Source: Nitrosopumilus sp. (GTDB lineage Archaea; Thermoproteota; Nitrososphaeria; Nitrososphaerales; Nitrosopumilaceae). Taken from it: DNA of 64,000 nucleotides. A program made the translations under genes and the position numbers. Positions within the stretch are counted from its first letter, which is position 1. Every line of letters begins with the position of its first letter. Under the pieces are notes generated by a model. That model searched no databases. It had not been told where the DNA came from and saw only the letters and a program-made list of their open reading frames with translations. The stretch is from contig CBDBLO010000002.1 of the NCBI GenBank assembly GCA_965207075.1, positions 2,080,001 through 2,144,000 of the forward strand. Direction: 5' to 3'. Of the stretch, positions 2,440-64,000 are shown in pieces.

Positions 2440-2532
2440 GCAGCGGCCCGCCGCCGTATCCGCGCCACCGCGCCCCCGGGCTTGCAGCCCACCGGTGATC
2501 AACATATAGATGGACTGTCCGCATACCCTGTC

Positions 2533-3972: not shown

Positions 3973-4001
3973 CGCGCAGCCGCCCGCAACCGGATTAGTA
4001 T

Positions 4002-4090
4002 TGGCGTTAACGGTTTCCCGTTACCGCCATCAAGGGTTTGTTCTTGGGCCTGTATCATGATTCAGCCCGGGCGTTACCCTTAACACGCTT
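4002..4090 (-). ncRNA. Candidate structured small RNA
   Basis: Minus-strand helix TTAAGGGT/ACCCTTGA enclosing GGGCTG..CAGGCCC, followed by hairpin TGGCG-G-TAACGG-GAAA-CCGTTA-A-CGCCA. TATA-like boxes at 4112-4117 and 4127-4132. Confidence 0.4.
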
Positions 4091-4146
4091 GACATATGTT
4101 GTACGTCTGAGTATTTATGGCTGATCTATATAGATCGGGTCTGGAT

Positions 4147-4365
4147 CTAGCTCCTCTCAGCCACGTACCAGATTATGATGCCGGCGCCTATTATGGCATA
4201 CCACTTGAAGTTGGAGCGGTGCGCGAACACGCTGGGCGAGCCCATCTCGCTGCCGCTCTGCGCCACTCTGATGCGGCGCATCTCAAAGGCCTGGCCCACG
4301 AGCCCCGCCACAAGCAGCGCGATTGCGACAAACCCCAGCGTCCAGTCCACGCATTCCGTACGCAT
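4147..4365 (-). CDS. Small two-TM membrane protein
   Basis: Hydrophobic helices WTLGFVAIALLVAGLVG and WYAIIGAGIIIWYV. Start uncertain. Confidence 0.7.
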   Translation of the reverse strand: MRTECVDWTLGFVAIALLVAGLVGQAFEMRRIRVAQSGSEMGSPSVFAHRSNFKWYAIIGAGIIIWYVAERS

Positions 4366-4534
4366 ACGTAAGATTTCTAGCTTGGGGTTGTTCGGCGGAG
4401 CCCAAGACCCGAGGCCGTAACACTGCAGATCGGCACGGTGTCGTCCCAGGTCCCGCCCGCGCGCGGCGCCACCGTCCGGCGGCCCCCGCAACGCGGCGTG
4501 CATTCTTTAAATTAGCATGCATTTTGGCCCCGCT

Positions 4535-5449
4535 ATGAAAGAGTCCGGCAAGATATGGATGAACGGCAAGCTGGTGCCGTTTGCCGATGCAAAGGTGCAC
4601 GTCCTGACGCACGCGCTGCACTACTCGACGTCGGTGTTCGAGGGGATCAGGTGCTATAACACGCCGGAGGGCCCCGCCATATTCAGGCTGGATGACCACG
4701 TGGACAGGATGTTCCGCTCCGCAAAGATGTACTCGATGAAGATTAGATATACCAAGGGCCAGATTGCAGACGCCATAATCGACACGGTGCGCGCATGCAG
4801 GCTCAAGGAGTGCTATATCAGGCCCCTGGCATACTACGGGTACGGCGAGATGGGGCTCACCCCCACAAAGAACAAGGTGGACGTCTCCATATCCTGCTGG
4901 CCCTGGAAGATGGGCGAGTCGAAGGCAGGCAAGTTCTCAGGGGCAAGGTGCATGGTGTCGAGCTGGACTAGGATCGACCCGAGGGCGCAGCCCGTGCAGG
5001 CAAAGGCGGCCGCCAACTATTCCAACGCCGCGCTCGCAAGGGTCGAGGCACTGGAGAACGGCTACGACGAGGCCATCATGCTCAACGGAGACGGGAGGGT
5101 CGCAGAAGGCAGCGCGGAGAACATCTTCATATGCACGGACGGGCGCATACTGACGCCCCCGCTCTCGACCGGGTGCCTCAGCGGGATCACCAGGGACAGC
5201 GTCATAAAGATAGCCGCGGCCGACGGCATCGACATATCAGAGTATGATCTGTACAGGGCCGACCTGTACACGGCCGACGAGATATTCATGACGGGCACGG
5301 CCGCCGAGGTAAAGTCCGTCACGCAGGTCGACCGCACTAGAATAGGGAGCGGCAGGATGGGCCGCGTCACAAAGGCGCTGCAAAAGTCGTTCGTGGGCGC
5401 CGCCATGGGCAAGGACAAGAGGTTCAGGCAGTGGCTCACGTTCATCTGA
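4535..5449 (+). CDS. ilvE: Branched-chain amino acid aminotransferase
   Basis: HALHYSTSVFEGIRCY, AKAAANY (PLP lysine), EGSAENIF, LSGITR, FMTGTAAEV. Confidence 0.95.
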   Translation: MKESGKIWMNGKLVPFADAKVHVLTHALHYSTSVFEGIRCYNTPEGPAIFRLDDHVDRMFRSAKMYSMKIRYTKGQIADAIIDTVRACRLKECYIRPLAYYGYGEMGLTPTKNKVDVSISCWPWKMGESKAGKFSGARCMVSSWTRIDPRAQPVQAKAAANYSNAALARVEALENGYDEAIMLNGDGRVAEGSAENIFICTDGRILTPPLSTGCLSGITRDSVIKIAAADGIDISEYDLYRADLYTADEIFMTGTAAEVKSVTQVDRTRIGSGRMGRVTKALQKSFVGAAMGKDKRFRQWLTFI

Positions 5450-6380: not shown

Positions 6381-7274
6381 GCGGCGGCTGTGTTGCCTGC
6401 CCACGACCTTGGATGCCACCGACGCGGCGTCCGCGGCGGCCCCCACGTTGTGCGTCCTGATGATGTCGGCCCCCCGCATCACCGCGACCGCCTCCGCGGC
6501 GGCCGTCCCGTACGCGCGGTCCGCCACGTCCGCGCGCCCCGTGACTGCGCCCAGAAACGACTTGTTTGACACGGATACCACTACGGGCATCGCCTTTTTG
6601 GCCCTGATGGAGGCAAGGCCGTCCAGCACGGCCGCGTCCCGCGACACCCAGTCAGTCGATCCCATCCTGGTGTAAAGCGGGCCGCCGGCCCTCTTGCGAA
6701 AGAATCCTATCGACGGATCTACCGCTATCCGCGACGCGGGAATGCCCGCCTTCGAGGCGATCTTGAGGCTCTCGGCAAGCAGGCGCCGCGCGTCGCGCAC
6801 ATAGTCCCGCGCCGGGGCCGCCACCCGCCTGCCGGGGCCGCCGTACGAGCATACCACTACAGACGCGCGGTGGCGCCGCGCCGTTCCGGCCATCCCCGCG
6901 TCATGCTTGAGCCCGGACACGTCGTTGACTATGACGGCCCCCGCCTCCAGCGCCCTTTTTGCCACCGCGGCCCTGCACGTGTCGACGGATATGGGCAGGT
7001 TGCACCCGTCCTGTACGGCGCCCACCGCCCTGAGGACGCGGTCCGACTCCTCGCGCTCGGATACCCCGGTCTCCAGATATGGCGCGGTGGACATGCCGCC
7101 CACGTCCACGTAGTGGCCGCCCTCGTCCTCTATCGACTTTGCCCTGTCCCTGATGGCGCGCCTCGTGATATACACGGAACCCCCGTAGAACGACTCCGGG
7201 CTGGCGTTCACCACACCCATTACGCGCACCGGGCTGCCGGGACCCGCGCGAATGCCCCCGATCACACTGGTCAC
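6375..7274 (-). CDS. folP: Dihydropteroate synthase
   Basis: VMGVVNASPESF, DVGGMST, ISVDT, NDVSG, DPSIGF, SNKSFLG, IIRTHNV. Confidence 0.9.
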   Translation of the reverse strand: MTSVIGGIRAGPGSPVRVMGVVNASPESFYGGSVYITRRAIRDRAKSIEDEGGHYVDVGGMSTAPYLETGVSEREESDRVLRAVGAVQDGCNLPISVDTCRAAVAKRALEAGAVIVNDVSGLKHDAGMAGTARRHRASVVVCSYGGPGRRVAAPARDYVRDARRLLAESLKIASKAGIPASRIAVDPSIGFFRKRAGGPLYTRMGSTDWVSRDAAVLDGLASIRAKKAMPVVVSVSNKSFLGAVTGRADVADRAYGTAAAEAVAVMRGADIIRTHNVGAAADAASVASKVVGRQHSRRL

Positions 7275-7319
7275 AACGGTTTATCAACGCACGGCATAAT
7301 TGAACCATGTGATGCTGTG

Positions 7320-8171
7320 ATGGACGGCGCGGCGGTAGAGAAGGAGGAGGAGGAGGAGGAAACGGAAGCGACAACGGCATGGCAGGACATGTACAACGCG
7401 ATACTGGCCGACTTTGCGTATGACACCGCAAGGGACGACAAAAGCGCCCGCATGCTTGACCACATATTGGATGAGGCGGGCATGCCCGACGCATACCCCG
7501 CGCTGCGCAGGATGATCGAAGGAAATACCGTGCTGGTGGCCGGCTCGGGGCCCTCCCTTGACGAGTCGCTTGATACCCTTGCAAGGCACGCGGACACGGC
7601 CGTCCTGATCGCCGCGGACACGGCCGCGAAACCCCTCGTGGACCGCGGCATCATGCCGCACGTCATCGTAACCGACCTGGACGGAGACGTCGAGTGCCAT
7701 GCGGAGGCCTCCGAGAAGGGGGCCGCCATAATAGCGCACGCCCACGGGGACAACATGCACATGCTGCACCATGTCAGAAGGTTTCGCGCATGCATGGGGA
7801 CGACCCAGGCGGGCCCCGTCGGACGCATAAGGAACCTGGGCGGGTTTACCGACGGGGACAGGGCCGTGTTTGCGGCCGACCACTTTGGCGCGGGCCGGAT
7901 CATTCTGTTTGGCATGGACCTCGACGGGGAGGAGGTGGGCAGGCACTCCAGGACCGCCGCGTCCGACCGCGCCACGAAGGCAAAAAAGCTGCTAAAGGCA
8001 AGGGAGCTGCTGGAGGTGTGGCTTGCCGGCCGGCCCAGGCGGGGCCGCCGCCTGTACACCGCATCCGACTGCCGCATAGCGGGGTTTGAGAGCATCACAT
8101 ACAGTGATGTGGACAGGCTTCTGGCGCCCGGCGCGGGTGGCCGCAGGGGGCCCGCGCGCCCGGAGGAGTGA
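7320..8171 (+). CDS. mptE: 6-hydroxymethyl-7,8-dihydropterin pyrophosphokinase (DUF115)
   Basis: GSGPSL, IVTDLDG, HAHGDN, GGFTDGDRA, LFGMD. Divergent from folP. Confidence 0.85.
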   Translation: MDGAAVEKEEEEEETEATTAWQDMYNAILADFAYDTARDDKSARMLDHILDEAGMPDAYPALRRMIEGNTVLVAGSGPSLDESLDTLARHADTAVLIAADTAAKPLVDRGIMPHVIVTDLDGDVECHAEASEKGAAIIAHAHGDNMHMLHHVRRFRACMGTTQAGPVGRIRNLGGFTDGDRAVFAADHFGAGRIILFGMDLDGEEVGRHSRTAASDRATKAKKLLKARELLEVWLAGRPRRGRRLYTASDCRIAGFESITYSDVDRLLAPGAGGRRGPARPEE

Positions 8172-8280
8172 CGCCGGGCGCGAGCGCTGCGGCGGAAGAG
8201 GAGGAAGGGAAGAGGAACCGCGCTGCGCGCCGCGGCGGCACTAGAATGAGTTTAATATCCGTCGGCCCCCCTTTCATTCC

Positions 8281-8988
8281 ATGAAGCTCTCCGAGGACGA
8301 GGTAAGGGACGTCATATCCATACAGAAGAGAATTGCAGGAAAGATAGAGGCGCACCAAAAGGAGATCAGGCTGCTTGAGCGCAATTACGAGATACTTGAA
8401 AAGATCGTCACGGAATCCAGCTTTACGAGCGCGGCGGATCTGCTGGGCGATGGCAGCAGCAGTAGCAGTAGCGGTGACGGCGCGAACTCGGAGACTGGTA
8501 ACGCAGACGGTGCGGAGGCCGCAGACTCGGCAGCGGCAGCGCAACCGCACGAGGCGCCAGATGCGGCACCAGAGAACGCCGCGCCGGAGCAGCCGTCCGG
8601 CAGCGGCACTGTCATCACCGACAGCGGCACGGGCAAGCCCCTGGCCGACGTGCAGCGGACGCAGGACCGCATCAGCATCATTATAGCAGAGGGACTGCAG
8701 GGCCTGGCCGAGGACGTGCCCCCGTTCCGCTCGTTCTTCATAGACAGGATACTGGGCGGCATGCAGAAGGGCGACGCCGAAAGGGTGCGCAGCGGCTCGC
8801 TGCAGGAGCACGAGTCCATAAGCTACGAGATAGACGCCGACCCCGGGACGGGGCGCCTCAGGCGCATACTGATCAAGAACTACGGGGACGAGCGGCGCGC
8901 AAGCGAGATCCTGAGCACGGCGGGATGGTCGTTTTCCAGGATGCTCGAGAGGGAGGAGGCCGCGGCCGCGGCGCAGCCGGGCAGATGA
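8281..8988 (+). CDS. Hypothetical protein (N-terminal coiled coil, low-complexity linker)
   Basis: Host-like codon usage. TTTAATA upstream. Ends 6 nt before guaA. Confidence 0.75.
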   Translation: MKLSEDEVRDVISIQKRIAGKIEAHQKEIRLLERNYEILEKIVTESSFTSAADLLGDGSSSSSSGDGANSETGNADGAEAADSAAAAQPHEAPDAAPENAAPEQPSGSGTVITDSGTGKPLADVQRTQDRISIIIAEGLQGLAEDVPPFRSFFIDRILGGMQKGDAERVRSGSLQEHESISYEIDADPGTGRLRRILIKNYGDERRASEILSTAGWSFSRMLEREEAAAAAQPGR

Positions 8989-30836: not shown

Positions 30837-30913
30837 ACTTGAACTACTGATCTGCGGGTTATGAGCCCGCCGGGATGACCTAGCCCTCAAGTGTCTGACT
30901 TCCCCACCCCGCT
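30824..30913 (-). tRNA. Initiator tRNA-Met(CAT) with an approximately 15-nt D-arm insertion (putative non-canonical intron)
   Basis: A1-T72 acceptor AGCGGGG/CCCCGCT-A, GCGGG-CTCATAA-CCCGC anticodon arm, T-loop TTCAAGT, 90 nt in total. TATATA at 30937-30942. Confidence 0.9.
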
Positions 30914-31019
30914 AGAGAATGGCGGCACCCGCGCCGTATATACGCCTTTCAATACGAGCGTCCGCGGCCCGGAGTTTGTGCACACACTGGGGGCCCGCCC
31001 GCAGACGTGCCCGACTGCT

Positions 31020-31070
31020 GCAGCAGTAGCAGTAGCAGTAGCAGTAGCAGTAGTAGCAGTAGTAGTAGTA
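31020..31070. repeat. GCAGTA/GTA microsatellite
   Basis: Tandem GCAGTA and GTA units are directly visible. Confidence 0.9.
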
Positions 31071-31313
31071 GGACGGCGACGGCGCGCAGAACCGTCCGAG
31101 CCCCCAAGCAGCCATCCCGCACCGCCCGCCTCTGAAACTATGGGAGAGACGGGTCGGCCTGCCAGGCCCCTGACGGTTCGATGCCCGCAGCAGGAATAAG
31201 GAACGCGTCACCGGGGGCGGCAGGCATTTGTGCCATTCTGTCACAAGGCCGGGGGCAGTGACGGGGGCGGCTGCAACCGACAAGTTAAAAGAGAATGACG
31301 CGTAACATACCAC

Positions 31314-31634
31314 GTGGCAAAGCAGGAGGTCAGGACGGTAAACGGCAAAAAGTATCTGTACTATACGCACTACCAGAAGAGCGACAGGATAGTGGTGTAC
31401 TGCGGCCCCGCCCACCGGACCGACGCAAAGCTAAAGGCCGCAAAGTTGGAGATGAAGCAGACGGCAAAGTCAGTCAAGGAGTTACAGGCCAGGCGCAGGG
31501 AGCTAAAGGCGGACATAGCAAGGCTTACTTCTGCTGCAAAGTCAGAGGGGGCCAAGAAGGGCGCAGGCAGCAGCAGCGGCAGCGGCAACGGCCGCCGCCG
31601 GACAAAGAAGAGGCCCAAGGCGGCCAGACGGTAG
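31314..31634 (+). CDS. Small basic hypothetical protein (KKYLYY..YCGP motif plus coiled coil)
   Basis: MAKQEVRTVNGKKYLYYTHYQKSDRIVVYCGPA. TTAAAA about 25 nt upstream. Confidence 0.7.
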   Translation: MAKQEVRTVNGKKYLYYTHYQKSDRIVVYCGPAHRTDAKLKAAKLEMKQTAKSVKELQARRRELKADIARLTSAAKSEGAKKGAGSSSGSGNGRRRTKKRPKAARR

Positions 31635-31685
31635 TGCGGGCATTCCCAACCAAGAGATAATTAGCAGGCACGATCTGCAGCTGTA

Positions 31686-32846
31686 ATGGACAAAAGGATC
31701 CAGATCGCGGCGGTTGCCGGGGCAATCGCGTTCTCCGTAATGGTGCTCTCGTCCCCGGCCGACCCGCTGCCGCTGCCGGATCCGGCCGCAATGTCGGGGC
31801 GGGAAGACGGCGACACGCTGTCAGTGTCGGCCGCGTCGTCCGTATCCACGCTTGCAACCGGCCTCGAAAAGCCACGCGCCATTGCCATACACGGGGATCG
31901 CGTATTTGTGACCGAAAAGGCGGGCGCAGTCCGCGTCGTGCAGAACGGCACCCTCCTGGAGCAGCCGCTTGCCGCGTTCCGCGCGGCCGACACCTTTGGC
32001 GGGGGGCTGCTCGGGATTGCAGTGCACCCCGACTTTGATGAGAACCACTACCTGTACGTGTACCTCACGTACGTACGGCAGGACGGCGCCGGGGCGCAGG
32101 ACGGCGCCGCCACGCTGTGGAACAAGGTGGTGCGCATCACAGAGGCCGACAGCAGGCTGGCCGACGCGACGGACATAATCGACGGCATCCCCGGCTCAAA
32201 GTTCACAAACGGCGGCTTTGTAAAGTTCGGCCCCGACGGCAAGCTGTACGTCGGGACGGGCACCGTATCTGGCGCGTCCCACCTGCCGCGCGACGCCGGC
32301 TCGCTTGCCGGCAAGATACTGCGCATAAACGGCGACGGAACCATACCGGAGGACAACCCGTTTGGCCCGGACTCGGCCGTGTACTCGGTGGGGCACCGCA
32401 ACCCGCAGGGGATCGCGTGGGACGGCGACGGGGTCATGTACGTCGCAGAGCACGGGCCCGAGAAGAACGACGAGATCAACATAATCACCCCCGGCGCCGA
32501 CTACGGGTGGCCCGACCGCGAGTGCTCCGGTGACGAGGACGGCGCGGGCGCGGCCGTCCTGTGCTACGACCCGAGCATAGAGCCGGGCGGAATCGCGTTT
32601 TACGACCACGACAGGCTGGGGCTGGACCAGCCGTTTGTGATGACGTCGCTGAGGGCGTCCAACCTGTACCAGATCGACTTTGAGGAGGGGCTGCCGTCCC
32701 AGCAGACCATACTGAGCGGCGCGGGGCGCATAAGGGACGTCGCGGTGCACCCGGAGGACGGCAGCGTGTACGTAATAACGTCAAACACGGACGGCAAGGG
32801 CTTTGCAGGCCCTGATGATGACAGGCTTATACATATCAAGAGGTGA
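31686..32846 (+). CDS. PQQ-dependent sugar dehydrogenase (GSDH family), exported
   Basis: Signal/TM, GLEKP, GLLGIAVHPDF, FGPDGKLY, GKILRI, GHRNPQG, DEINII, GRIRDV. Confidence 0.9.
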   Translation: MDKRIQIAAVAGAIAFSVMVLSSPADPLPLPDPAAMSGREDGDTLSVSAASSVSTLATGLEKPRAIAIHGDRVFVTEKAGAVRVVQNGTLLEQPLAAFRAADTFGGGLLGIAVHPDFDENHYLYVYLTYVRQDGAGAQDGAATLWNKVVRITEADSRLADATDIIDGIPGSKFTNGGFVKFGPDGKLYVGTGTVSGASHLPRDAGSLAGKILRINGDGTIPEDNPFGPDSAVYSVGHRNPQGIAWDGDGVMYVAEHGPEKNDEINIITPGADYGWPDRECSGDEDGAGAAVLCYDPSIEPGGIAFYDHDRLGLDQPFVMTSLRASNLYQIDFEEGLPSQQTILSGAGRIRDVAVHPEDGSVYVITSNTDGKGFAGPDDDRLIHIKR

Positions 32847-54525: not shown

Positions 54526-56011
54526 AATTCTGTTTCCTAATTCCGCCGTGGGCATCCGCCCCTGCGGCTTTGAGGCAGGCATGCGTTAATTTGTTCAATA
54601 AAATTTGACAAAACGGCCAAAGGGCGCTCATGCAGGCGTTGAAATGCTTATGGCGAAAGTCAGACACGATGTATCCCACATCTGCGTGCCCAGACAGACG
54701 CCAACGCCTGTTCGCGGCGTCGGCATTTAACCATGACTCGATCCCCCCTCCGGGCGCCTGCCGGGGCGGCGCGGCGCGGCCAGCCCGGGGGAATTCGGCG
54801 TACTGGAGGGGGCGGAGCCGCCCATGAGCCGGACGCGGGGCGCCGCAGCGGCGGGAACGGACAACGAAAAGTACGTCAGGCGCGGCGCGGACCTGTTCAT
54901 AGAGTATGATCCAGGGTGGGAGGATGACGTGGGGCGCGCAAACGAGGGCAAGGTCGGCGCCCCGTACCGGTACGCGGAGACGCTCATCATGCTGGCCGCC
55001 GCCTTCAGGGGCGCGCTGGGGATCCGGTACAGACAGCTCGAGGGGATGGTCGGGAAGATGGTAGGCGGATCCAACACGCCCGCATACAGCCAGCTGTACA
55101 AGCGGATCAACAGGCTTGACGCGGACATCCGCCGGAACCCGGACGGGATGGTGACGGTGTCGGACAGGAAGGGGTCGCGGATGCTGGCGCTCGACGCAAG
55201 CGGGCTCAAGCAGCACAACAGGGGCGAGTGGATGAGGGCCAAGTGGAGGGTTAGGCGGGGCTTTGTAAAGATGCACGTGCTGGTCGACACGGAGACCATG
55301 AAGATACTCGCGCTGGAGGTCACGGACGATGCCGTGGGGGACTCGACCATGTTCGAGTCGCTGCTCGGACAGGTAGTGGACGCGGGCGGCGCGCGGCACA
55401 CGGAGCCGCCCGCCGCGCCACGTTCCGGCGGCGGCCCGAGATACGAAAACCTTCTCGCGTCCGGCATCCCCCCGCTCGCGTCATTCTTCCCGGGCGCCCC
55501 CCGGAACCGGGCCGCGCCCGACCTCCTGCTTGGCGACGCCGCGTACGGATCAAGGAAGAACGTGGCCGCGTGCGCGCGGGCAGGGGTGACCCCTGGCATT
55601 GCACACACCATCAACGTGACGGCGCGTGGCAGGGGATCCGGCGACGCGTGGGGCATATCCGTAAGGGACCAGATGGGCGGAAGCCCCGACGCGACGCGCC
55701 TGGACCTGATGGGCAGGGAGGAGAAGAGGGAGAACCAGGCGTACTGGAAGGCCCGCATAGGCTACGGCCACCGCTGGATCGCGGAGGCCGTGTTTTCGGT
55801 ATTCAAGCGCCTGTTCGGCGAGCACCTGATGGCCCTCAAGTGGGAGAACATCGTGCAGGAGATAAGGCTCAAGGTGATCCAGTACAACAAGTGGAGGGAT
55901 GAGTCGATAGCGCGCGAGGCGGGAGGCGGGACTTTCTGATGGTGTGACGACCATGTCGTCGTCCGATAGGAATCCAACAGGCACCCAGACGGCGAATTAG
56001 GAAACAGAATT
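54526..56011 (+). mobile_element. IS5-family insertion sequence (IS903/ISH1-like), 1486 bp
   Basis: Perfect 18-bp TIRs AATTCTGTTTCCTAATTC (54526-54543 and 55994-56011). 8-bp TSD TGATGCGC (54518-54525 and 56012-56019). Confidence 0.92.
54824..55939 (+). CDS. IS5-family DDE transposase
   Basis: ALDASGLK, GEW, KMHVLVD, GDAAY, YGHRWIAEAVFSVFKRLFG. Confidence 0.92.
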   Translation: MSRTRGAAAAGTDNEKYVRRGADLFIEYDPGWEDDVGRANEGKVGAPYRYAETLIMLAAAFRGALGIRYRQLEGMVGKMVGGSNTPAYSQLYKRINRLDADIRRNPDGMVTVSDRKGSRMLALDASGLKQHNRGEWMRAKWRVRRGFVKMHVLVDTETMKILALEVTDDAVGDSTMFESLLGQVVDAGGARHTEPPAAPRSGGGPRYENLLASGIPPLASFFPGAPRNRAAPDLLLGDAAYGSRKNVAACARAGVTPGIAHTINVTARGRGSGDAWGISVRDQMGGSPDATRLDLMGREEKRENQAYWKARIGYGHRWIAEAVFSVFKRLFGEHLMALKWENIVQEIRLKVIQYNKWRDESIAREAGGGTF

Positions 56012-57388: not shown

Positions 57389-57931
57389 TCATTTTGTTTT
57401 TTCATACACGTCCATGAGCCTTCCTGCGTTCATCAAATAGCTCACGCTATACTTTGAGCAGCACAGCCTCGTTCTCTTAAAGTCTGAGCGCTGGCGTAAT
57501 CCCTCCATGTATTCTGGAGGTATCTTGTATGCGTCGGTGATTATAACGCCACCGATCTTTAGAAACTTGAGCGCATCCAGAAATATCTTCTTCGGGTTAC
57601 GATGAATGTTGTTGATGACATTGACACATATCACTACGTCTGTTTCTTCCACGTGATCGCTGACATCTGAAGCATCCTTGGGTATGAACTCGTCCAGATT
57701 TGACCCTGCTGCCTCGCTCGAATAGGGGTCAATCCCGACCGCATGCACCTCGACACCTTTTGAAGAGAGGCACTCCTTGCACCCTGTGAGGGCCGTTCCG
57801 TCCGAGCATCCGATGTCAACTATGACGAGTCTGTCGTTTGCATGCGCAAAATGTTGGTAGATGTAGTTTGGTATGCCCAGCTCGTCATACCGAGTCCTCC
57901 ATGTTGTCTTGAGTCTGAACAAGTCCATCAA
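57389..57931 (-). CDS. Small class I SAM-dependent methyltransferase
   Basis: VDIGCSDG, VGIDP, DVVICVNV, LKIGG. ATGA overlap with the hsdR stop. Confidence 0.8.
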   Translation of the reverse strand: MMDLFRLKTTWRTRYDELGIPNYIYQHFAHANDRLVIVDIGCSDGTALTGCKECLSSKGVEVHAVGIDPYSSEAAGSNLDEFIPKDASDVSDHVEETDVVICVNVINNIHRNPKKIFLDALKFLKIGGVIITDAYKIPPEYMEGLRQRSDFKRTRLCCSKYSVSYLMNAGRLMDVYEKTK

Positions 57932-60900
57932 CTCCCAGCCCAGTTCTTTGCTATGACTTCTGCTTGGCTCAGAACGGTATCAGTGGCCTTCTTGGCCTTG
58001 TCGGGCGGATATTCGTACCTCTTCAGGATCTTCTTGACTTCCAGTCGGATTGCAGCCTGAACGCTTGCCTTTTGCGTCCAGTCTATTGTGACGTTCCTTC
58101 TTATCATGTCAGTCAGCTCCTTTGCAATCGACGCGAGTACCGCATCTCCCATGATCCTTACCGCGCTGTCACTGACCCCAAGCGCGTCATAAAACGCAAG
58201 CTCGTCCTCATCCAAGTCTAGCGTTCTGCCCCTGCCTCTCTCTTCCCGGATCTGCCTTGCAATCTTGATAAGCTCGTCTATGACCTCGCTTGTGCTGATT
58301 CTCTTGTCATTGTATCTTCTGATGGTATCCTCCAGCAAGTCGCGGAAGGATCTCCCCTTGACTATGTTCCTCTTTGAGTATATCCTAATCTTCTCCTCAA
58401 GTATCCTCCTGAGCGCCTCGCGCGCAAGATTCTTCTCGGGAGATTTCCTGATGTTTGAGAGGAAGACTTCCGACAATATTGACACCTCCGTACCAGGACT
58501 TCCCGCGTTGCCGATTATGTCGATTATCTCATCGGACACGATGGCCTTTGAGATTATCTGCTTTATCCCAACATCAAACCTCTCGCGGTCGGCGCCGCTG
58601 TATCCGGTGGTCTTTGTGACTGCCGCCTTTATGGCCTCGAAGAACCCCATCTCCTCTTTGATTCTCATGGCCTCCTCCCTCGGAAGTGCTATGGAGAACG
58701 CGCCGCGCAACAGGGCAAACTCCTTCTGGAACCTCTCCTTTGTGCCCGGCTCCCTCAGTATGTGATCTACCGCGCGGGACATGAACGGCACTCGCTTTTC
58801 AGGCCTGAGGTTGAAAAATTCCATGTAGTCAAACCCGTGGAACATGCACTTGACGACATCGTATTTTTCAAGCATTGCAGACACTGCGTCATCCTGCACG
58901 TTGGTTTGCTTGCCGCGGCCGCCGCTCCTCGTGTAATTTGACATGGCATTCTTTATCTCCCTGCTCATGTCCATATAATCGACAATCAGGCCCCCCTCCT
59001 TGCCCGGGTATACCCTGTTCACCCTTGCTATTGCCTGCATCAGGGTGTGGCCGTCCATCCATTTGTCCAGATACATAGTGTGGAGCGAGGGGGCGTCAAA
59101 CCCGGTAAGGAACATATCCCGTACTATGATGATCTTGTGCGCGCCCTTGGGATCCTTGAACCTGTCGCCGATGGCCCTCCTTTTTTGTTTGCTTCGTATG
59201 TGCTCCTGCCACGGTTCTGGATCGGACGCAGAGCCGGTAAACACTACCTTGATCAACCCCTTGTCGTCGTCCTTGTGGTACCAGTCGCGGCGCTGCTCGA
59301 CGATCTCGTCGTGCAGCTCAACGCATATCCTTCTAGACATGCAGACAATCATTGCCTTGCCCTCCAAGACGGAGCTCCTCTCTTCGTAGTGTCTTATAAT
59401 GTCGCCGGCGATCTTCTTGATGCGGGCAGGTGCTCCTACCAACTTCTCCATGCGGGACCACTCTTTCATTATTTCCTCCCTTTCGTCAGTCTCGCTTCCT
59501 TCAGTCACCCTTGCAAAGTCTTCATCAATGCGCGGGCGCTCTGTGGATCTTATGTCAACGGGCACAAACTTGTTCTGATAGTAGATTCTGACTGTGGATC
59601 CGTCCTCCACTGCCTGTTGCACATCGTAGATGTCTACATAGTCGCCAAATACGGTGGGAGTGGAACGGTCTTTTTGCTCGATCGGCGTGCCGGTAAACCC
59701 GATGAAGGATGCGTTGGGCAGGGCGTCCCTCAGGTATTTGGCAAGACCGTATGCGACTTGCGGCGCGTCGTTTCTGTTGACTATCTTGGCCGCGAACCCG
59801 TAATGGCTTCGGTGCGCCTCGTCTGCAATAACCACTATGTTGTCTCTTTCTGACACGGCGTGATGCTGGTCGCGGTTCTCCGGTAGAAACTTTTGGATGG
59901 TAGTAAACACGATCCCACCAGATGCGACGCTTAGCAGATCTGATAGATCCCTTCGCGCCTCGGCCTGCACGGGCTTTTGCCGCAGTATGTCTTGGCATCT
60001 GCCGAACGTGCCGAACAGCTGGGCGTCAAGGTCGTTTCTATCTGTGAGCACTACTATGGTGGGGTTGTCCATACCGCGGATCAACTTTCCCGCATAAAAC
60101 ACCATGGTTAGTGACTTTCCGGATCCCTGTGTGTGCCAGACCACGCCTGCCTTTTTCGTGTCGCCCCGCGCACTGATCGTGGACTGCAAAGCTTTGTTGG
60201 CCGCCCAGTACTGGTGGTAGGCTGCCATCTTTTTTGTTGTTTTTTCACCCTTCTCAAACACGATAAAATTCCGTATGATGTCCAAGAGCCTACTCTTCTC
60301 AAACATTCCGCGTAGTAGAACCTCAGTCTGAGAAAGTCCTCCGCCAGGTCTTGCACCGTCAATGGTCTTCCACTCCATGAATCTCTCCATGCCAGATGAC
60401 ATGGTTCCGGCCCTTGCCTGCATGCCATCGCTTATTGTGAGAATCTCGACATACCTGAACAGATCCGGAATTTTTTTCATGTACGTCTGGAGCTGGTTGT
60501 ATGCAGACCAGATGTCCGCCTTTTCATCTGCCAGATTCTTCAGTTCGAAGACTACCAGCGGGATACCGTTTACAAACAGTATAACGTCGGGCCTGCGCTC
60601 GTCATCTCCCTTTATGGTGAACTGGTTGACTGCTAGAAAGTCGTTGCTACGGATTTTGTCGTCGTCAAACTCAAAGAGCCATGTCTTTTCGTACCGCTCA
60701 CCGGATTCCGTCTTGACTGGGACGTCCACCCCGTCAACCAGCATCTTGTGAAATGATTCGTTATCGGTAATCGGGTGCTGGGAAGAGCTCCGCAGTACCT
60801 GCCTTATCGCATCTTCTACTGCAGGCCCGGGAATACCCGGATTAATTCTCTGCAGTGCGCCTCTTAGTCTGTCCACCAGCACCACTGTCTTGTAATCCTC

Positions 60901-61032
60901 GCGCAGCGCGGAATGGCCACCGGGCAGATATTCTTCGTTTTTTCCGCGTATTATTTCATAACCAAGTTCTTGTAAGACAGACAGAACATATTCTTCCACA
61001 TCCGCTTCTGAAATTGGTTTTTTCATTGCCAT
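57928..61032 (-). CDS. hsdR: Type I restriction endonuclease subunit R
   Basis: RPDVILFVNGIPLVVFELK, HTQGSGKS, DEAHRS, FTGTP, TGFDAP, QAIARVNR. Confidence 0.97.
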   Translation of the reverse strand: MAMKKPISEADVEEYVLSVLQELGYEIIRGKNEEYLPGGHSALREDYKTVVLVDRLRGALQRINPGIPGPAVEDAIRQVLRSSSQHPITDNESFHKMLVDGVDVPVKTESGERYEKTWLFEFDDDKIRSNDFLAVNQFTIKGDDERRPDVILFVNGIPLVVFELKNLADEKADIWSAYNQLQTYMKKIPDLFRYVEILTISDGMQARAGTMSSGMERFMEWKTIDGARPGGGLSQTEVLLRGMFEKSRLLDIIRNFIVFEKGEKTTKKMAAYHQYWAANKALQSTISARGDTKKAGVVWHTQGSGKSLTMVFYAGKLIRGMDNPTIVVLTDRNDLDAQLFGTFGRCQDILRQKPVQAEARRDLSDLLSVASGGIVFTTIQKFLPENRDQHHAVSERDNIVVIADEAHRSHYGFAAKIVNRNDAPQVAYGLAKYLRDALPNASFIGFTGTPIEQKDRSTPTVFGDYVDIYDVQQAVEDGSTVRIYYQNKFVPVDIRSTERPRIDEDFARVTEGSETDEREEIMKEWSRMEKLVGAPARIKKIAGDIIRHYEERSSVLEGKAMIVCMSRRICVELHDEIVEQRRDWYHKDDDKGLIKVVFTGSASDPEPWQEHIRSKQKRRAIGDRFKDPKGAHKIIIVRDMFLTGFDAPSLHTMYLDKWMDGHTLMQAIARVNRVYPGKEGGLIVDYMDMSREIKNAMSNYTRSGGRGKQTNVQDDAVSAMLEKYDVVKCMFHGFDYMEFFNLRPEKRVPFMSRAVDHILREPGTKERFQKEFALLRGAFSIALPREEAMRIKEEMGFFEAIKAAVTKTTGYSGADRERFDVGIKQIISKAIVSDEIIDIIGNAGSPGTEVSILSEVFLSNIRKSPEKNLAREALRRILEEKIRIYSKRNIVKGRSFRDLLEDTIRRYNDKRISTSEVIDELIKIARQIREERGRGRTLDLDEDELAFYDALGVSDSAVRIMGDAVLASIAKELTDMIRRNVTIDWTQKASVQAAIRLEVKKILKRYEYPPDKAKKATDTVLSQAEVIAKNWAGS

Positions 61033-62606
61033 GCCTCTGGTTGAATTCTAATTTTTCCTGACATCAGTTTCGATAACAAAAAATTTCGTTGTAACGTCAG
61101 CACATGTGACTCAAATGTGTTTCGTCGTATACGTTCGTCCCAAGTAGAGACATACGCTTCAAAGTGATTAACCAAGGTTCGAGGAGGTTCAACCATTGGC
61201 ATCATTTCGAGCTGGTTTTTAGTAATGGCCCCAAACACTGTTCCTATTTGGTCGTATTGTTTGAGATCCTGCTGCAAAGACCATGCCAGATAATAGGTAA
61301 AAGATCGTGAACCCGTTTTATGCCTAAGTGCTGCAACACCTCTGCCTATGCAGCACTTCTCCCAGGCCATGTTTATCGCCCCTACAGGGGCTCTAACGCT
61401 GACTAATGTATCGTCTGCATGAGCAATGCGAGTTGGTGCTGTGCAGTATTTTCTCTTTCTAGGATATCGCAGCCCAAAGTCCGTACTACCCTGAAAAAAT
61501 GGAAGGCCTTTGCATTCATCATTGTAAGTTTTACTTGGAGGCGATTGGCCCATGGTCAGATTGAGGCAATTTTTCACCACGTTTATTGTCCATACCTCAG
61601 GAATGTCACCCAGCTCCGAATCAGTCAATTGATCAGGGAATAAATCATAAAGATGACTAGGAAGGCCGGGCAAAGACTCTCCGGGTTGCCATCTCCCCTC
61701 CATCTTGGCACGGACAGGATCAAAGTCCACAAACCATGACTTGAACAATGCTCGCGCCATCACTTCAAGTGTTTCATTCATCTTGTGATTGAGATCTATT
61801 TTCGCATCTAATGTTCCTAGAATATGTGCAATGATTCGTTGTTTGTCCAAGGTGGGAATTGGCATGAGCCACTCTTTAAAAGATTTTGTTGTAATAGTTT
61901 GGAAGATAGTTCCATAAGTGAGGGATTCCATTTGTGATCGTGTACCTTTGAGCGCGTAGTAAAGATAGTCAGGAACTATACGTTCATTTGGAATAAGAGC
62001 ATAGCAAGTTTGATTGAAAGCCATTTCTTTGCCAAGTTGAGTTAATGCGCCAACAGTTCCACGTGAAGTAATAAGTATTGTATTCTTAGGCATGATCTTA
62101 GTAGAGCTTTTAGATACACCCATCTCAGTAATAGATTCTTGAGATTTGTACAAATACCTCGAGTTATTTTTAGCTATATCTTTTGCAGTTACCCATTGAA
62201 TATTTCCGTGCCAGTAGTCGGGCACACTACGACTTGGTGTGCCACCAATAATTGCGGTAGCGACTTCAGAAACAGGCATTTTGCTCCAATGTGTATTATT
62301 CGTTTCCACAGGAATTTTTTGCGCGTCTATGATTTTTTTAAATTTACTGTTGACAGCTTTAAGATCCACAACATCTACCGTGTAAGGAAGATCCGAATCA
62401 TCAAACTCAATACTTAGGTTTGTCATAGTATCGTGATCAATAGGTTGATCGCCCTCCACGGCAAGATCCAAATCAGAACCATCGTGTGTTGTCCATTTTG
62501 CCCTGCTTCCAAACACCCAAACACGGACATTGGATAGAAGATACTTGCGTAGTATGTTACATACTATCTCCAACTGACTTGGACTAATATCAACTGGACT
62601 AGTCAA
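61023..62606 (-). CDS. hsdS: MNT nucleotidyltransferase fused to type I specificity subunit S
   Basis: About aa 1-100: VFGSRA..DGSDLDL..DLPYTVDVVD. Then two TRDs (GGTPSR; MGQSP) with LDAKIDLN and FKSWFVDF conserved regions. Confidence 0.92.
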   Translation of the reverse strand: MTSPVDISPSQLEIVCNILRKYLLSNVRVWVFGSRAKWTTHDGSDLDLAVEGDQPIDHDTMTNLSIEFDDSDLPYTVDVVDLKAVNSKFKKIIDAQKIPVETNNTHWSKMPVSEVATAIIGGTPSRSVPDYWHGNIQWVTAKDIAKNNSRYLYKSQESITEMGVSKSSTKIMPKNTILITSRGTVGALTQLGKEMAFNQTCYALIPNERIVPDYLYYALKGTRSQMESLTYGTIFQTITTKSFKEWLMPIPTLDKQRIIAHILGTLDAKIDLNHKMNETLEVMARALFKSWFVDFDPVRAKMEGRWQPGESLPGLPSHLYDLFPDQLTDSELGDIPEVWTINVVKNCLNLTMGQSPPSKTYNDECKGLPFFQGSTDFGLRYPRKRKYCTAPTRIAHADDTLVSVRAPVGAINMAWEKCCIGRGVAALRHKTGSRSFTYYLAWSLQQDLKQYDQIGTVFGAITKNQLEMMPMVEPPRTLVNHFEAYVSTWDERIRRNTFESHVLTLQRNFLLSKLMSGKIRIQPEAWQ

Positions 62607-62615
62607 GTGATCTAT

Positions 62616-63197
62616 TCAACTCCTAGAAGTTTTATGCAAGTTTTTTGTAGATATATCAGCTTTGGAGCTTTTAGTTTTTTTAAGCTCAGCATTAAGATCG
62701 CGCAATCTGGATTCCAATTTGGTGATCTCGGATTCAATATCGTTCTTTGTTGGTCTCTTAGATATCGGAGATGGGACAGCGTGGCCATCCTGCAAACTAG
62801 ATAATACGTATTGCGCTTCGTGTAGAAATTCAGATGCAGCTTCAAAAACATATTGTGCTTTTTCTTCATCGTATGTGTGACTAGTAATTCCACGATTTTT
62901 TCGATACTGATCCCAAACAGAAACGTCTGATCGAATAAGATCCTTTTTGTATGCTTCACGAATAATGTCTTTGAAATTCATAGATGCAACTTCTGCAGGG
63001 TTAAACAATGCCATTCCCAAATGTCGCTTGATCATTTTAAGAGTTATTTCATACGTGAATTCAAAGGATTGTATAACGGCACTACGCATGTGTTTTTTGT
63101 GCTTTGGGCTTTTTTGAATTGTTTCATCATAATATGTATCGAGCGCGTCTGCAAGCTGAGCAATCGCTTTTTCCAGTGATGTAAGGTCAAGATTCAT
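62616..63197 (-). CDS. HEPN (HI0074-like) putative toxin
   Basis: IQSFEFTYE and RGITSHTYDE (Rx4HxY). Extra C-terminal coiled coil. Confidence 0.88.
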   Translation of the reverse strand: MNLDLTSLEKAIAQLADALDTYYDETIQKSPKHKKHMRSAVIQSFEFTYEITLKMIKRHLGMALFNPAEVASMNFKDIIREAYKKDLIRSDVSVWDQYRKNRGITSHTYDEEKAQYVFEAASEFLHEAQYVLSSLQDGHAVPSPISKRPTKNDIESEITKLESRLRDLNAELKKTKSSKADISTKNLHKTSRS

Positions 63198-63201
63198 GTA
63201 T

Positions 63202-64000
63202 TCACACCTTTTTCACATTAAATCCAAGGCTCTTTATGTTTTTGGTAATTGATGCATCCAGTTTCTTGGATTTCGATTGCAGCTCATTCCATTGCAATAC
63301 TAGCTGGCCCATTCTTTCTTCAAACGGTTCTTCGTCATCCAACTGCGAGCTTACACCTACGTAGCGTCCCGGAGTAAGAACATACCCATGCTTATGAATC
63401 TCATCCAACATGACACTCTTGCAAAATCCGACTACGTCCTTGTACCTGGATCTTTTATTGCGCCAAGAATGATATGTGTCGGCAATCTCTGCAATATCCT
63501 CGTTCGTCAGCTCCCTGTGCCGCCTATCCCTCATCGTACCCATGTTGCGGGCATCAATGAACAATACCTGCTTCTGACGGTTTCTGAACCGGTGGTTCTT
63601 TTTGTCTCTAGTTACAAACCACAGGCAGGCGGGAATCTGAGTGTTGTAGAACAGCTGGGAGGGCAGTGCGACCATGCAGTCCACCAGATCCTGCTCCACT
63701 ATATTTTTGCGTATTTCGCCCTCACCGCTCGTGTTAGAGGACATCGAGCCGTTGGACATTACGAATCCGGCCGTTCCGGTAGGTGATAAATGATGGATAA
63801 AGTGCTGAATCCATGCAAAGTTTGCGTTGCCAGCAGGTGGTATGCCATACACCCATCTGACATCATCCTGTAACAGGTGACCGTCCCAGTCACTGTCGTT
63901 GAACGGAGGATTGGCAAGTATGAAATCCGCCCTCAGATCCTTGTGCGCGTCGTTTACAAAGCTGCCCTGTCCATTCCACTTGATCATGTTGGATTCTATC
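63202..64000 (-). CDS. hsdM: Type I methyltransferase subunit M (3' part; begins beyond the window)
   Basis: [37 protein letters not shown]. Frame stays open to the edge. Confidence 0.95.

Follow-up and report, generated by a model that had tools for sequence, protein, structure and literature searches.

By its sequence, the 64,000-nucleotide stretch of Nitrosopumilus sp. DNA analyzed here (the window) contains, except for the 5' part of hsdM, a complete type I restriction-modification (R-M) operon (hsdM, hsdS, and hsdR) in which a HEPN gene lies between hsdM and hsdS and the specificity subunit HsdS begins with a minimal nucleotidyltransferase (MNT) domain. The reading that explains this best, and that we consider evenly poised between right and wrong, is that a type VII-like HEPN/MNT cassette lies between hsdM and hsdS and has its antitoxin, an adenylyltransferase, tethered to HsdS, and that an RNase is coupled in this way to R-M. 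Such an antitoxin would be hidden in the first 100 residues of proteins named only "restriction endonuclease subunit S" in databases.

Results

The four genes are encoded on the minus strand in the order hsdM, HEPN, MNT::hsdS, and hsdR. The open reading frames and sequence of the window confirmed this order, which an earlier note had proposed, together with its gaps of 4 nt between hsdM and HEPN (63198 to 63201) and 9 nt between HEPN and MNT::HsdS (62607 to 62615); the hsdS stop lies in a 10-nt overlap with hsdR. Only the 3' part of hsdM (63202 to 64000, minus strand) falls inside the window, and the gene continues past its end; the full gene encodes 542 aa (7203 to 8831 of locus L004). Full-length HsdM matched PF02384 at 2e-112 (N6-adenine methyltransferase domain), PF12161 at 3.6e-26 (HsdM N-terminal domain), and the PADLOC model MTase_I at 1.1e-222, and an NPPF motif was seen in the translation. 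hsdR (57928 to 61032, minus strand) encodes 1,034 aa that scored 601.7 bits (1.9e-180) with TIGR00348, against a cut-off of 284.55, and 1071 bits with PADLOC REase_I. Matches to PF04313, PF18766, PF22679, and PF11867 were also obtained, and the N-terminal nuclease, SF2 motor, and C-terminal helical domain of a type I HsdR were all found. The island that carries the operon has transposases on its flanks and has no counterpart in any of 23 other genomes from this genus. Separately, an archaeal SSU rRNA is present in the genome (1459 bits).

The HEPN gene (62616 to 63197, minus strand) encodes a 193-aa member of the HI0074/NTase_sub_bind family, a predicted RNase toxin. PF08780 (1.3e-29) was the only Pfam match over the 193 aa, with no ABC-ATPase domain; TIGR01987 (HI0074) scored 84.5 bits, above its cut-off of 55.8, and a search with the PADLOC models gave zero matches. 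The nearest solved structure was PDB 1jog (E = 1.6e-22), with a Foldseek TM score of 0.92 for the AF2 model (pLDDT 86.7). As had been claimed, the Rx4HxY motif is intact: read by reverse complement, it is RGITSHTY at aa 102 to 109 (62871 to 62894, minus strand), and R102, H107, and Y109 are invariant across 44 aligned relatives. By analogy with the role of this Tyr in the available portions of PMC7641770 and PMC11586414, Tyr109 is the predicted AMPylation site. In the AF2 model, a C-terminal extension (aa 141 to 193; 62619 to 62777, minus strand) forms a flexible linker, a single long helix (aa 151 to 182), and a basic Lys/Ser-rich end. The extension is kept in 13 of 15 aligned relatives (58 to 80% identity); it is missing from the two shorter rows, P0284 and P0286, and from the ~140-aa relatives in other loci. 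When the HEPN core was sought in proteins of 339 to 2000 aa, 0 of 389 candidates matched, which is weak evidence that the toxin remains a separate, unfused protein.

MNT::HsdS (61023 to 62606, minus strand) is a 527-aa protein with a TTG start. Pfam, PDB, and AF2 comparisons place an HI0073-like MNT domain, a predicted adenylyltransferase antitoxin, at fusion aa 1 to 98 (62313 to 62606, minus strand). This domain matched PF18765 at 7.1e-12 and PF01909 at 3.1e-07, both over aa 18 to 98; its closest solved structure was PDB 1no5 (E = 4.1e-14 over aa 4 to 98), and its AF2 fold is alpha-beta-beta-alpha-beta-alpha (aa 9 to 96). It scored 38.7 bits with the NCBIfam MntA equivalog NF047752, below the cut-off of 60, which counts against the tethered-antitoxin reading. 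The GSx10DxD catalytic motif, likewise described beforehand as intact, was recovered by reverse complement as GSRAKWTTHDGSDLD at fusion aa 33 to 47 (62466 to 62510, minus strand). G33, S34, D45, and D47 do not vary among 37 fused proteins, and all 120 homologues among the matches listed, as well as 149 of 150 representatives, have the motif.

A junction of ~8 residues (aa 99 to 106; 62289 to 62312, minus strand), delimited by alignment and AF2, separates the MNT domain from the canonical HsdS N terminus at W107. Unfused HsdS relatives begin M-x(2-5)-W, and that W aligns with W107; at the junction the AF2 pLDDT falls to 67 to 81. HsdS proper (aa 107 to 527 plus the stop codon; 61023 to 62288, minus strand) comprises TRD1, a central helix, TRD2, and a C-terminal helix. 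It matched PF01420 at 1.8e-31 (aa 106 to 281) and PADLOC Specificity_I models at up to 1.8e-89 (covering aa 105 to 522), and its AF2 model has the two-TRD, two-helix layout of type I subunits, with helices at 253 to 293 and 476 to 516. The fused HsdS is the sole Methylase_S match in the genome; thus, if the R-M system is functional, it has to use the fused protein.

The fusion could in principle be an artifact, either of assembly or sequencing error or because HsdS is made from the ATG at 62279 (M110) with MNT as a separate product. TTG is uncommon as a start, and M110 lies near the domain boundary. Nevertheless, the stop-to-stop frame spans 530 aa without an internal stop. Logan contigs from two runs, X1 at depth 21.5 (study P1) and X2 at depth 329 (study P2), covered 61000 to 63300 with 0 differences and 0 gaps, and one of these runs may be the assembly's own source. 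The statement in the earlier note that no stop separates MNT from TRD1 thus held, and the contigs contained neither the stop nor the frameshift that might have split the two. HsdS synthesis solely from the internal ATG is also disfavored: M110 is unconserved, being I or V in close relatives, whereas conservation at fusion residues 4 to 7 is 90% or higher across 37 fused proteins, so that the TTG start is the supported reading. Furthermore, hundreds of independent fused homologues exist, and the RefSeq annotation of Zymomonas mobilis ATCC 10988 plasmid pZMOB01 has the same 527-aa fusion. An artifact is therefore already largely refuted, and we regard it as extremely improbable.

The domain profile searches and cross-genome survey that the earlier note had suggested indicate that the MNT::HsdS arrangement is widespread in bacteria and archaea. 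Among scored database proteins of fused length (289 to 923 aa), 431 of 503 matched the MNT domain (E ≤ 1e-3). PF18765 and PF01420 were both found on all 120 fused homologues among the matches listed, and among the nearest representatives at 50% identity, 86 of 150 were at least 400 aa long. A HEPN gene lies directly upstream of MNT::HsdS in 19/19 fused loci examined, and the next recognizable gene upstream is hsdM in 17 of them. Three distinct HEPN/MNT subtypes are each fused to HsdS, each with the matching HEPN subtype upstream, and the fusion is still kept where MNT identity among relatives drops to ~30%. Most instances are bacterial; the arrangement, which the earlier note had read as a possible guarded or addictive R-M system in an archaeon, is not archaea specific. 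pZMOB01 has the identical four-gene layout, also with stops and starts that overlap, whereas Acetobacter plasmids (e.g., Acetobacter ascendens pAP1447-1) carry an unfused five-gene operon, hsdM-HEPN-MNT-hsdS-hsdR, with a separate MNT of 105 aa. RefSeq gives the genes of these operons generic names only. A literature search for the fused and unfused hsdM-HEPN-MNT-hsdS-hsdR operons found no paper, and the MNT-HsdS fusion is apparently undescribed in the literature.

Rx4HxY was intact in 15 of the 19 HEPN partners and GSx10DxD in every MNT checked. In the other four, R, H, or Y is missing from the motif while the MNT motif is kept, which pure toxin-antitoxin logic does not predict. This pattern would suit a domesticated regulator, that is, a two-part nucleotidyltransferase in which HEPN binds the substrate, the role originally proposed for HI0074, and the target is an R-M component, a viral protein, or nucleic acid, for example to tune restriction. 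MNT-HEPN pairs have repeatedly been domesticated into regulatory nucleotidyltransferases (Anantharaman et al., available portion of PMC3710099), and the subclade that includes the window adds the conserved HEPN helix, a possible docking element. On the other hand, the invariant R102, H107, and Y109 are the signature of active, AMPylatable HEPN toxins, and the closest characterized relative, the Legionella pair, is a toxin neutralized by AMPylation (PMC11586414). We consider a domesticated regulator improbable.

To what extent the fusion matters is a separate question. In a tree of 151 MNT domains, which is poorly resolved, at least 19 changes between fused and stand-alone forms were counted, at least 7 of them forced by strongly supported branches alone. 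Such repeated switching weakens the case for an essential tether; judged from these sequences, the covalent tether, though common, is optional and appears dispensable in nature. These data bring in a reading that we hold to be possible while leaning against it: the pair may be an independent toxin-antitoxin or abortive-infection module in a type I cargo slot, fused incidentally and without cross-talk with restriction. The fusion would then have arisen, with near-neutral effect, as a by-product of stop and start codons that overlap, with MNT working alike fused or free. Since fusion takes one mutation, whereas fission takes a new stop, a start, and a ribosome site, fused forms would accumulate. 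Consistent with this, the unfused Acetobacter operon has the same gene order and overlapping stop and start codons, and at locus L031, which shares that order, a single in-frame stop divides MNT from HsdS. Moreover, free-standing HEPN-MNT pairs with no hsd gene within 6 to 8 kb occur both elsewhere in this archaeal family and on a Gemmobacter plasmid, and type I operons have slots that are filled by many unrelated defense genes (Payne et al., available portion of preprint 10.1101/2024.01.29.577857). Against an incidental passenger, most of the nearest relatives are fused: of 151 MNT domains, 98 have an HsdS part and 25 stand alone, although clustering at 50% identity overstates how many variable fused proteins there are. 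The fusion also persists across the divergence and the three subtypes described above, and the linker is short and the catalytic residues invariant. Mantel distance correlations over 15 loci gave r = 0.86 (P = 2e-4) for HEPN versus MNT and r = 0.04 (P = 0.38) for HEPN versus HsdM. These distances show the HEPN and MNT sequences co-diverging as one module, independently of HsdM; the same co-divergence would also follow from joint inheritance on one cassette.

Discussion

The tethered-antitoxin reading assumes that an MNT gene lost its stop codon, whereupon the enzyme would have been translated as the N-terminal domain of HsdS. By inference from characterized type VII HepT/MntA systems, this domain would use ATP to AMPylate Tyr109 in RGITSHTY of the HEPN dimer and keep the RNase silent. 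Because the antitoxin is part of the cell's only specificity subunit, its amount, stability, and location would follow HsdS and the M2S/R2M2S complex. Operon loss, host expression shut-off, or viral disturbance of the HsdS complex would then leave newly made HEPN unmodified, and the unmodified toxin would arrest translation, with either abortive infection or operon addiction as the outcome. The cassette and the 5' end of hsdS may move as a unit between R-M backbones. AMPylation, toxicity, and a guard or addiction role are assigned to HEPN/MNT::HsdS here by analogy. Type VII neutralization is enzymatic, a point against this reading as far as release of already AMPylated toxin is concerned.

A stricter, PrrC-like guard strikes us as rather unlikely. 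In that arrangement, MNT would hold the AMPylated HEPN dimer on M2S/R2M2S, and viral anti-restriction or operon loss would unleash the RNase. The triggers might be Ocr/ArdA-like DNA mimics or events in which HsdS is proteolyzed or displaced, and the extra conserved helix of the window's HEPN clade could provide a second docking point on the complex. If true, restriction would be backed by abortive infection in at least 11 bacterial lineages, as counted from record titles, and in ammonia-oxidizer-like archaea.

The fusion is a concrete physical link between a predicted suicide RNase and a restriction complex, and this makes the hypothesis of immunity-suicide coupling directly testable; natural fused (Zymomonas pZMOB01) and unfused (Acetobacter plasmids) examples exist for comparison. 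For annotation, it matters that an enzyme domain goes unannotated in hundreds of S subunits. The PADLOC model PDLC03138, which we take to be REBASE derived, already includes the MNT domain.

In type VII HepT/MntA systems, the GSX10DXD enzyme AMPylates the Rx4HxY Tyr, which blocks the RNase (available portions of PMC7641770 and PMC11586414); the earlier note had cited this chemistry correctly, as far as these sources go. Like the systems of Shewanella oneidensis, Aphanizomenon flos-aquae, and Legionella pneumophila, the locus has a small Rx4HxY HEPN beside a GSX10DXD MNT, and, as in Legionella, the MNT is short and without the alpha4 helix. Unlike in type VII systems, however, the predicted antitoxin is the N-terminal domain of HsdS inside an R-M operon, the HEPN belongs to PF08780/HI0074 rather than the DUF86 HepT family, and the MNT falls below the NCBIfam MntA cut-off. 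In most MNT-HEPN dyads the antitoxin comes first (available portion of PMC3710099), whereas the toxin comes first here and in all related loci, a further point against the tethered-antitoxin reading.

The HI0073/HI0074 pair of Haemophilus influenzae (1no5 and 1jog) provides the closest solved relatives of both parts and shares the RNITSHTY-type motif; the AMPylated HEPN/MNT pair of Legionella comes next. Membership of the window pair in the HI0074/HI0073 class is supported by these sequence matches. HI0073 presumably precedes HI0074 in gene order, and both are free-standing proteins, whereas MNT here is a domain of a 527-aa protein.

The MNT domain also matched the PADLOC candidates PDC-S09 at 2e-10 and PDC-M05A at 1.4e-3. 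The entries PDC-S09 and PDC-M05 comprise nucleotidyltransferase and HEPN genes counted as defense candidates for their position within BREX, DISARM, or type I R-M systems (guilt by embedding; available portion of 10.1101/2024.01.29.577857), and PDC-M05, a nucleotidyltransferase plus a HEPN protein, is archaea enriched (PMC12988326). They are catalogued as free genes, whereas MNT here is fused; the main text of the preprint (Payne et al.) contains no mention of MNT, nucleotidyltransferase, or HsdS. According to the available portion of PMC13000451, the isolated MNT domain is unstable and is stabilized by fusion, and FhepTA proteins are fused MNT-HEPN single chains. In FhepTA, MNT is tethered to its own toxin, whereas here its partner is an unrelated DNA-recognition subunit, leaving the toxin free.

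PrrC, in the EcoprrI type IC locus, is a HEPN-type RNase in a type I hsd operon that is kept latent via the R-M complex (available portions of PMC3506569 and PMC12707154). Together with RloC, it is the precedent for a HEPN RNase guarding restriction. We take prrC to lie between hsdS and hsdR. PrrC carries an ABC-ATPase domain; binding to EcoprrI, rather than an enzyme antitoxin, silences it, and the T4 Stp peptide activates it. By contrast, the HEPN described here is minimal, lies between hsdM and hsdS, and is accompanied by a dedicated nucleotidyltransferase.

Operon organization and continuity of the fused frame

The four operon genes follow one another on the minus strand, all in the same direction: hsdM (63202 to past the window end; 542 aa in full in L004, the window locus extended beyond that end), the HEPN open reading frame (ORF) (62616–63197; 193 aa), the MNT::HsdS ORF (61023–62606; 527 aa, TTG start), and hsdR (57928–61032). 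The successive gaps are 4 and 9 nt, and hsdS and hsdR overlap by 10 nt. The earlier note had proposed a profile search of both domains. Pfam and NCBIfam placed the HEPN ORF in the NTase_sub_bind/HI0074 family (PF08780, 1.3e-29; TIGR01987, 84.5 bits versus a cutoff of 55.8), while the 527-aa protein matched Polbeta/NTP_transf_2 at aa 18–98 and then Methylase_S at aa 106–281. Besides this one, the genome, which also contains an archaeal SSU rRNA, has no Methylase_S match. The motifs, checked on the reverse complement, are RGITSHTY (Rx4HxY; 62871–62894, minus strand; HEPN aa 102–109) and GSRAKWTTHDGSDLD (GSx10DxD; 62466–62510, minus strand; fusion aa 33–47). The MNT::HsdS frame is open over 530 codons, and Logan contigs from two sequencing runs of two studies, one run being possibly the source of the assembly, showed 0 differences and 0 gaps across 61000–63300; a stop or frameshift splitting MNT from HsdS is therefore absent from both runs' contigs. 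Since ORFs, domains, motifs, open frame, and contigs all agree, the gene order, the 4- and 9-nt gaps, both motifs, and the absence of a stop between MNT and TRD1 had been described correctly.

Further ORFs adjoin the operon. An ORF of 180 aa for a class I SAM-methyltransferase (Methyltransf_12/23/11; 57389–57931, minus strand), whose TTG start and the hsdR stop overlap by 4 nt, may be a fifth operon gene. Upstream of hsdM, just past the window end, lie a 369-aa Schlafen AlbA_2 protein (L004:9470–10579, minus strand) and a 104-aa ORF; by eye, similar genes seem to adjoin the HEPN cassette in two of the compared loci, L008 and L015.

Translation start, junction, and predicted fold of the fusion

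In frame, the TTG is preceded by only three codons. Among 37 fused proteins, P4, D6, and I7 are each conserved at ≥90%, and thus the N terminus is translated. The earlier note had raised the possibility that HsdS is made solely from the internal ATG at 62279; together with the conserved N-terminal residues, the replacement of the corresponding M110 by I or V in close relatives speaks against this. Unfused HsdS relatives start with M-x(2–5)-W, and because this W aligns with W107, the linker comprises only ~8 residues. The AF2 model of the fusion (pLDDT 84.2, pTM 0.71) contains a minimal nucleotidyltransferase fold at aa 9–96 without the alpha4 helix, followed by a complete HsdS composed of TRD1, a helix at aa 253–293, TRD2, and a helix at aa 476–516, with confidence falling at the junction.

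Gene context and abundance of related loci

A single-sequence scan of genome contigs found no relatives. An alignment-based scan, in which each species was represented by a single genome, yielded 80 loci, a mixed and biased sample that gives no prevalence because the scan patterns also matched the HsdS core. Sorting with HMMs built for this analysis revealed a continuous MNT::HsdS frame in 16 of the 80, each with an HI0074-type HEPN ORF directly upstream, and plain HsdS without HEPN or MNT in 57; three loci (L031, L034, and L075) carried HEPN and MNT with a separate or degenerate HsdS, and MNT lay elsewhere in four. When the window and two loci of the same archaeal family (L088 and L092) were added to the 16, HEPN preceded the fusion in 19/19 and hsdM was the next recognizable upstream gene in 17/19, so that the hsdM-HEPN-MNT::hsdS order, for which a survey across genomes had been suggested, recurs. 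The position of hsdR varies: it directly follows the fusion in some loci and is 1 to 4 kb away with intervening cargo in others.

Fusion aa 1–115 were also searched against 5.8 billion proteins with length limits of 289–923 aa, and 431 of the 503 candidates in this range matched at E≤1e-3; among the matches listed, 120/120 carried PF18765 and PF01420, and 120/120 the GS..DxD motif. Against 1.84 billion representatives, the MNT domain gave 3362 matches at E≤1e-3, of which 690 reached E≤1e-10. The best 150 of the 3362 comprised 86 proteins of ≥400 aa, 39 of 150–399 aa (mostly truncated fused forms and tandem MNTs, with one HEPN::MNT), and 25 of ≤149 aa. These counts are not a frequency, since proteins whose TRDs vary are over-represented when clusters are formed at 50% identity. 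Judged by record titles, the bacterial hosts in the alignment-based scan include Chloroflexota/Dehalococcoidia, Vicinamibacterales, Poribacteria, Latescibacterota, Rhodothermales, an Aldehydirespiratoraceae MAG, Kiloniella, Thermodesulfobacteriota, Gemmatimonadetes, Geobacteraceae, and WWE3.

In L008 (5641–6264), two MNT domains, of subtypes b and c, stand in tandem before HsdS. Seven database relatives (P0007, P0009, P0010, P0013, P0015, P0017, and P0061) are S subunits of 650–686 aa with candidate tandem MNTs, as judged from length and N-terminal sequence, with a PF22600 flag on three.

The HEPN-MNT pair as a unit

R102, H107, and Y109 are invariant across 44 aligned HEPN relatives. Beside fused HsdS, the full Rx4HxY motif is kept in 15 of 19 HEPNs, the exceptions being L008, with L in place of H, L042, with C in place of Y, and L035 and L054, which have lost the motif. 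GS..DxD is kept in every MNT domain examined. The HEPNs fall into three subtypes, each paired with a matching MNT subtype. Across 15 loci, pairwise HEPN and MNT distances were strongly correlated (r = 0.86, Mantel p = 2e-4), while those of HsdM correlated with neither HEPN (r = 0.04, p = 0.38) nor MNT (r = 0.15, p = 0.17). Thus, the cassette diverges and moves as a module independent of the methyltransferase, although the correlation is not proof of physical contact, since shared inheritance alone could yield it. A HEPN toxin fused to a larger protein was found in 0 of 389 candidates, a count of little weight.

The HEPN of the window carries a 53-aa C-terminal extension (62619–62777, minus strand), in which AF2 models a disordered linker followed by a helix (aa 151–182) and a basic end. 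In a 16-row HEPN alignment, 13 of 15 relatives (58–80% identity) keep the extension, whose conserved pattern centers on 'LESEI.KLQSRLRDL', and it is absent from two shorter rows (P0284 and P0286); the ~140-aa HEPNs of other fused loci are without it. Four tail-bearing relatives lie on contigs equal in length to contigs with fused HsdS matches, an agreement that is only suggestive, and the modeled tail could be a second docking element. Two other readings were discarded: a copy of the HsdM C-terminal helix, a likeness noted by eye, gave a BLASTP E of 80, and a tail unique to the window genome is contradicted by the 13 relatives. A weak match elsewhere in the genome (L003:1495–2382) proved to be the generic coiled-coil of a repeat protein. 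That 295-aa protein (contig C2 of genome G000, ~1.029 Mb) combines an N-terminal coiled-coil with near-identical Lys/Pro/Ala-rich repeats of ~30 aa.

Fused and unfused arrangements

The same fused operon occurs on plasmid pZMOB01 of Zymomonas mobilis ATCC 10988, where hsdM (30878–32470), an HI0074 family gene (3–392), a 527-aa 'restriction endonuclease subunit S' with an MNT match at its N-terminal start (389–1972), and hsdR (1969–5154) are found. Acetobacter accounts for 21 of the 26 plasmid records matched, and in Acetobacter ascendens pAP1447-1, hsdM, HEPN, a free 105-aa MNT, hsdS, and hsdR follow one another with overlapping stops and starts. In L031, MNT and HsdS are parted by one in-frame stop. 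The HEPN-MNT pair also occurs outside any R-M operon on a Gemmobacter plasmid, and in the archaeal family of the window, three loci have the pair without an hsd gene within 6–8 kb. A published hsdSp deletion in Z. mobilis ZM4 (PMC8432527) was considered as an addiction test and set aside, as pZM32 carries plain hsdRMS without HEPN or MNT.

A quick maximum-likelihood tree of 151 MNT domains (104 columns), itself poorly resolved, required at least 19 changes between fused and stand-alone forms, at least 7 of them forced by strongly supported branches alone. The MNT-HsdS boundary is therefore evolutionarily labile, which argues that the covalent link is not essential. Such lability also fits mutational bias, because fusion takes one mutation and fission several. 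Pure neutrality is opposed by the predominance of fused forms among the closest relatives and by their persistence through deep divergence and in three subtypes. Overall, a type VII-like HEPN/MNT cassette placed between hsdM and hsdS, its predicted antitoxin enzyme tethered to HsdS, is a real and recurrent architecture. Guard or addiction coupling to restriction would be an attractive idea, weakened by the existence of natural unfused variants.

Origin of the island

MNT matches at E≤1e-5 were present in 6 of 401 sampled genomes of the phylum and, at the same threshold and within this sample, in 0 of 23 other genomes of the genus. G+C content is 37–43% in the HEPN and MNT::hsdS segment (L004:5401–7200, window ~61400–63200) versus 47–55% in hsdM and hsdR, which suggests that the HEPN-MNT cassette and the 5' part of hsdS came from another donor than the R-M backbone. 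A DDE_Tnp_1 transposase (window 54824–55939, plus strand) and, past hsdM, a DDE_3 transposase (L004:14471–15478, minus strand) flank the island. Given this distribution, the G+C contrast, and the transposases, the R-M island looks horizontally acquired and mosaic.

In one sequencing run (X3), high-depth contigs break at window 61695–61745, within the HsdS central conserved region, and low-depth contigs of other organisms share ~40–50 nt with it. This is consistent with the region serving as a shared point of recombination at which TRDs or cassettes are swapped.

Relationship to characterized systems

HEPN toxins embedded in type I R-M loci, along with the PrrC precedent, are well described (PMC3506569, PMC3632139, PMC3710099, PMC12707154). 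A guilt-by-embedding preprint (Payne et al., 10.1101/2024.01.29.577857) drew 145 candidates from genes within BREX, DISARM, and type I R-M, with no mention of MNT, nucleotidyltransferase, or HsdS in its main text. No description of an MNT-HsdS fusion was found in the full-text literature, most subscription journals lying outside its coverage, and the architecture is apparently undescribed. Among PADLOC models, the HEPN had no match; the MNT domain matched candidate PDC-S09 (2e-10) and positions 2–92 of the Specificity_I model PDLC03138 (1.3e-19), and thus fused S subunits are already within such models, unremarked.

Sequence comparison places HI0074 (1jog, E 1.6e-22) and HI0073 (1no5, E 4.1e-14) nearest among solved structures; the HEPN toxin and MNT of Legionella pneumophila (8xdj, 8xeh) rank next, ahead of Shewanella MntA. 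The AF2 model of the HEPN (pLDDT 86.7) superimposes on 1jog with a TM of 0.92 and on the AMPylated Legionella HEPN with a TM of 0.81. In characterized pairs, the RX4HXY Tyr is AMPylated by MNT, whose GSX10DXD motif is needed for this (PMC7641770, PMC11586414). By analogy with these close relatives, toxin-antitoxin chemistry is a reasonable inference for the pair. The Legionella MNT likewise lacks the alpha4 helix (PMC11586414), as does the MNT domain fused to HsdS here.
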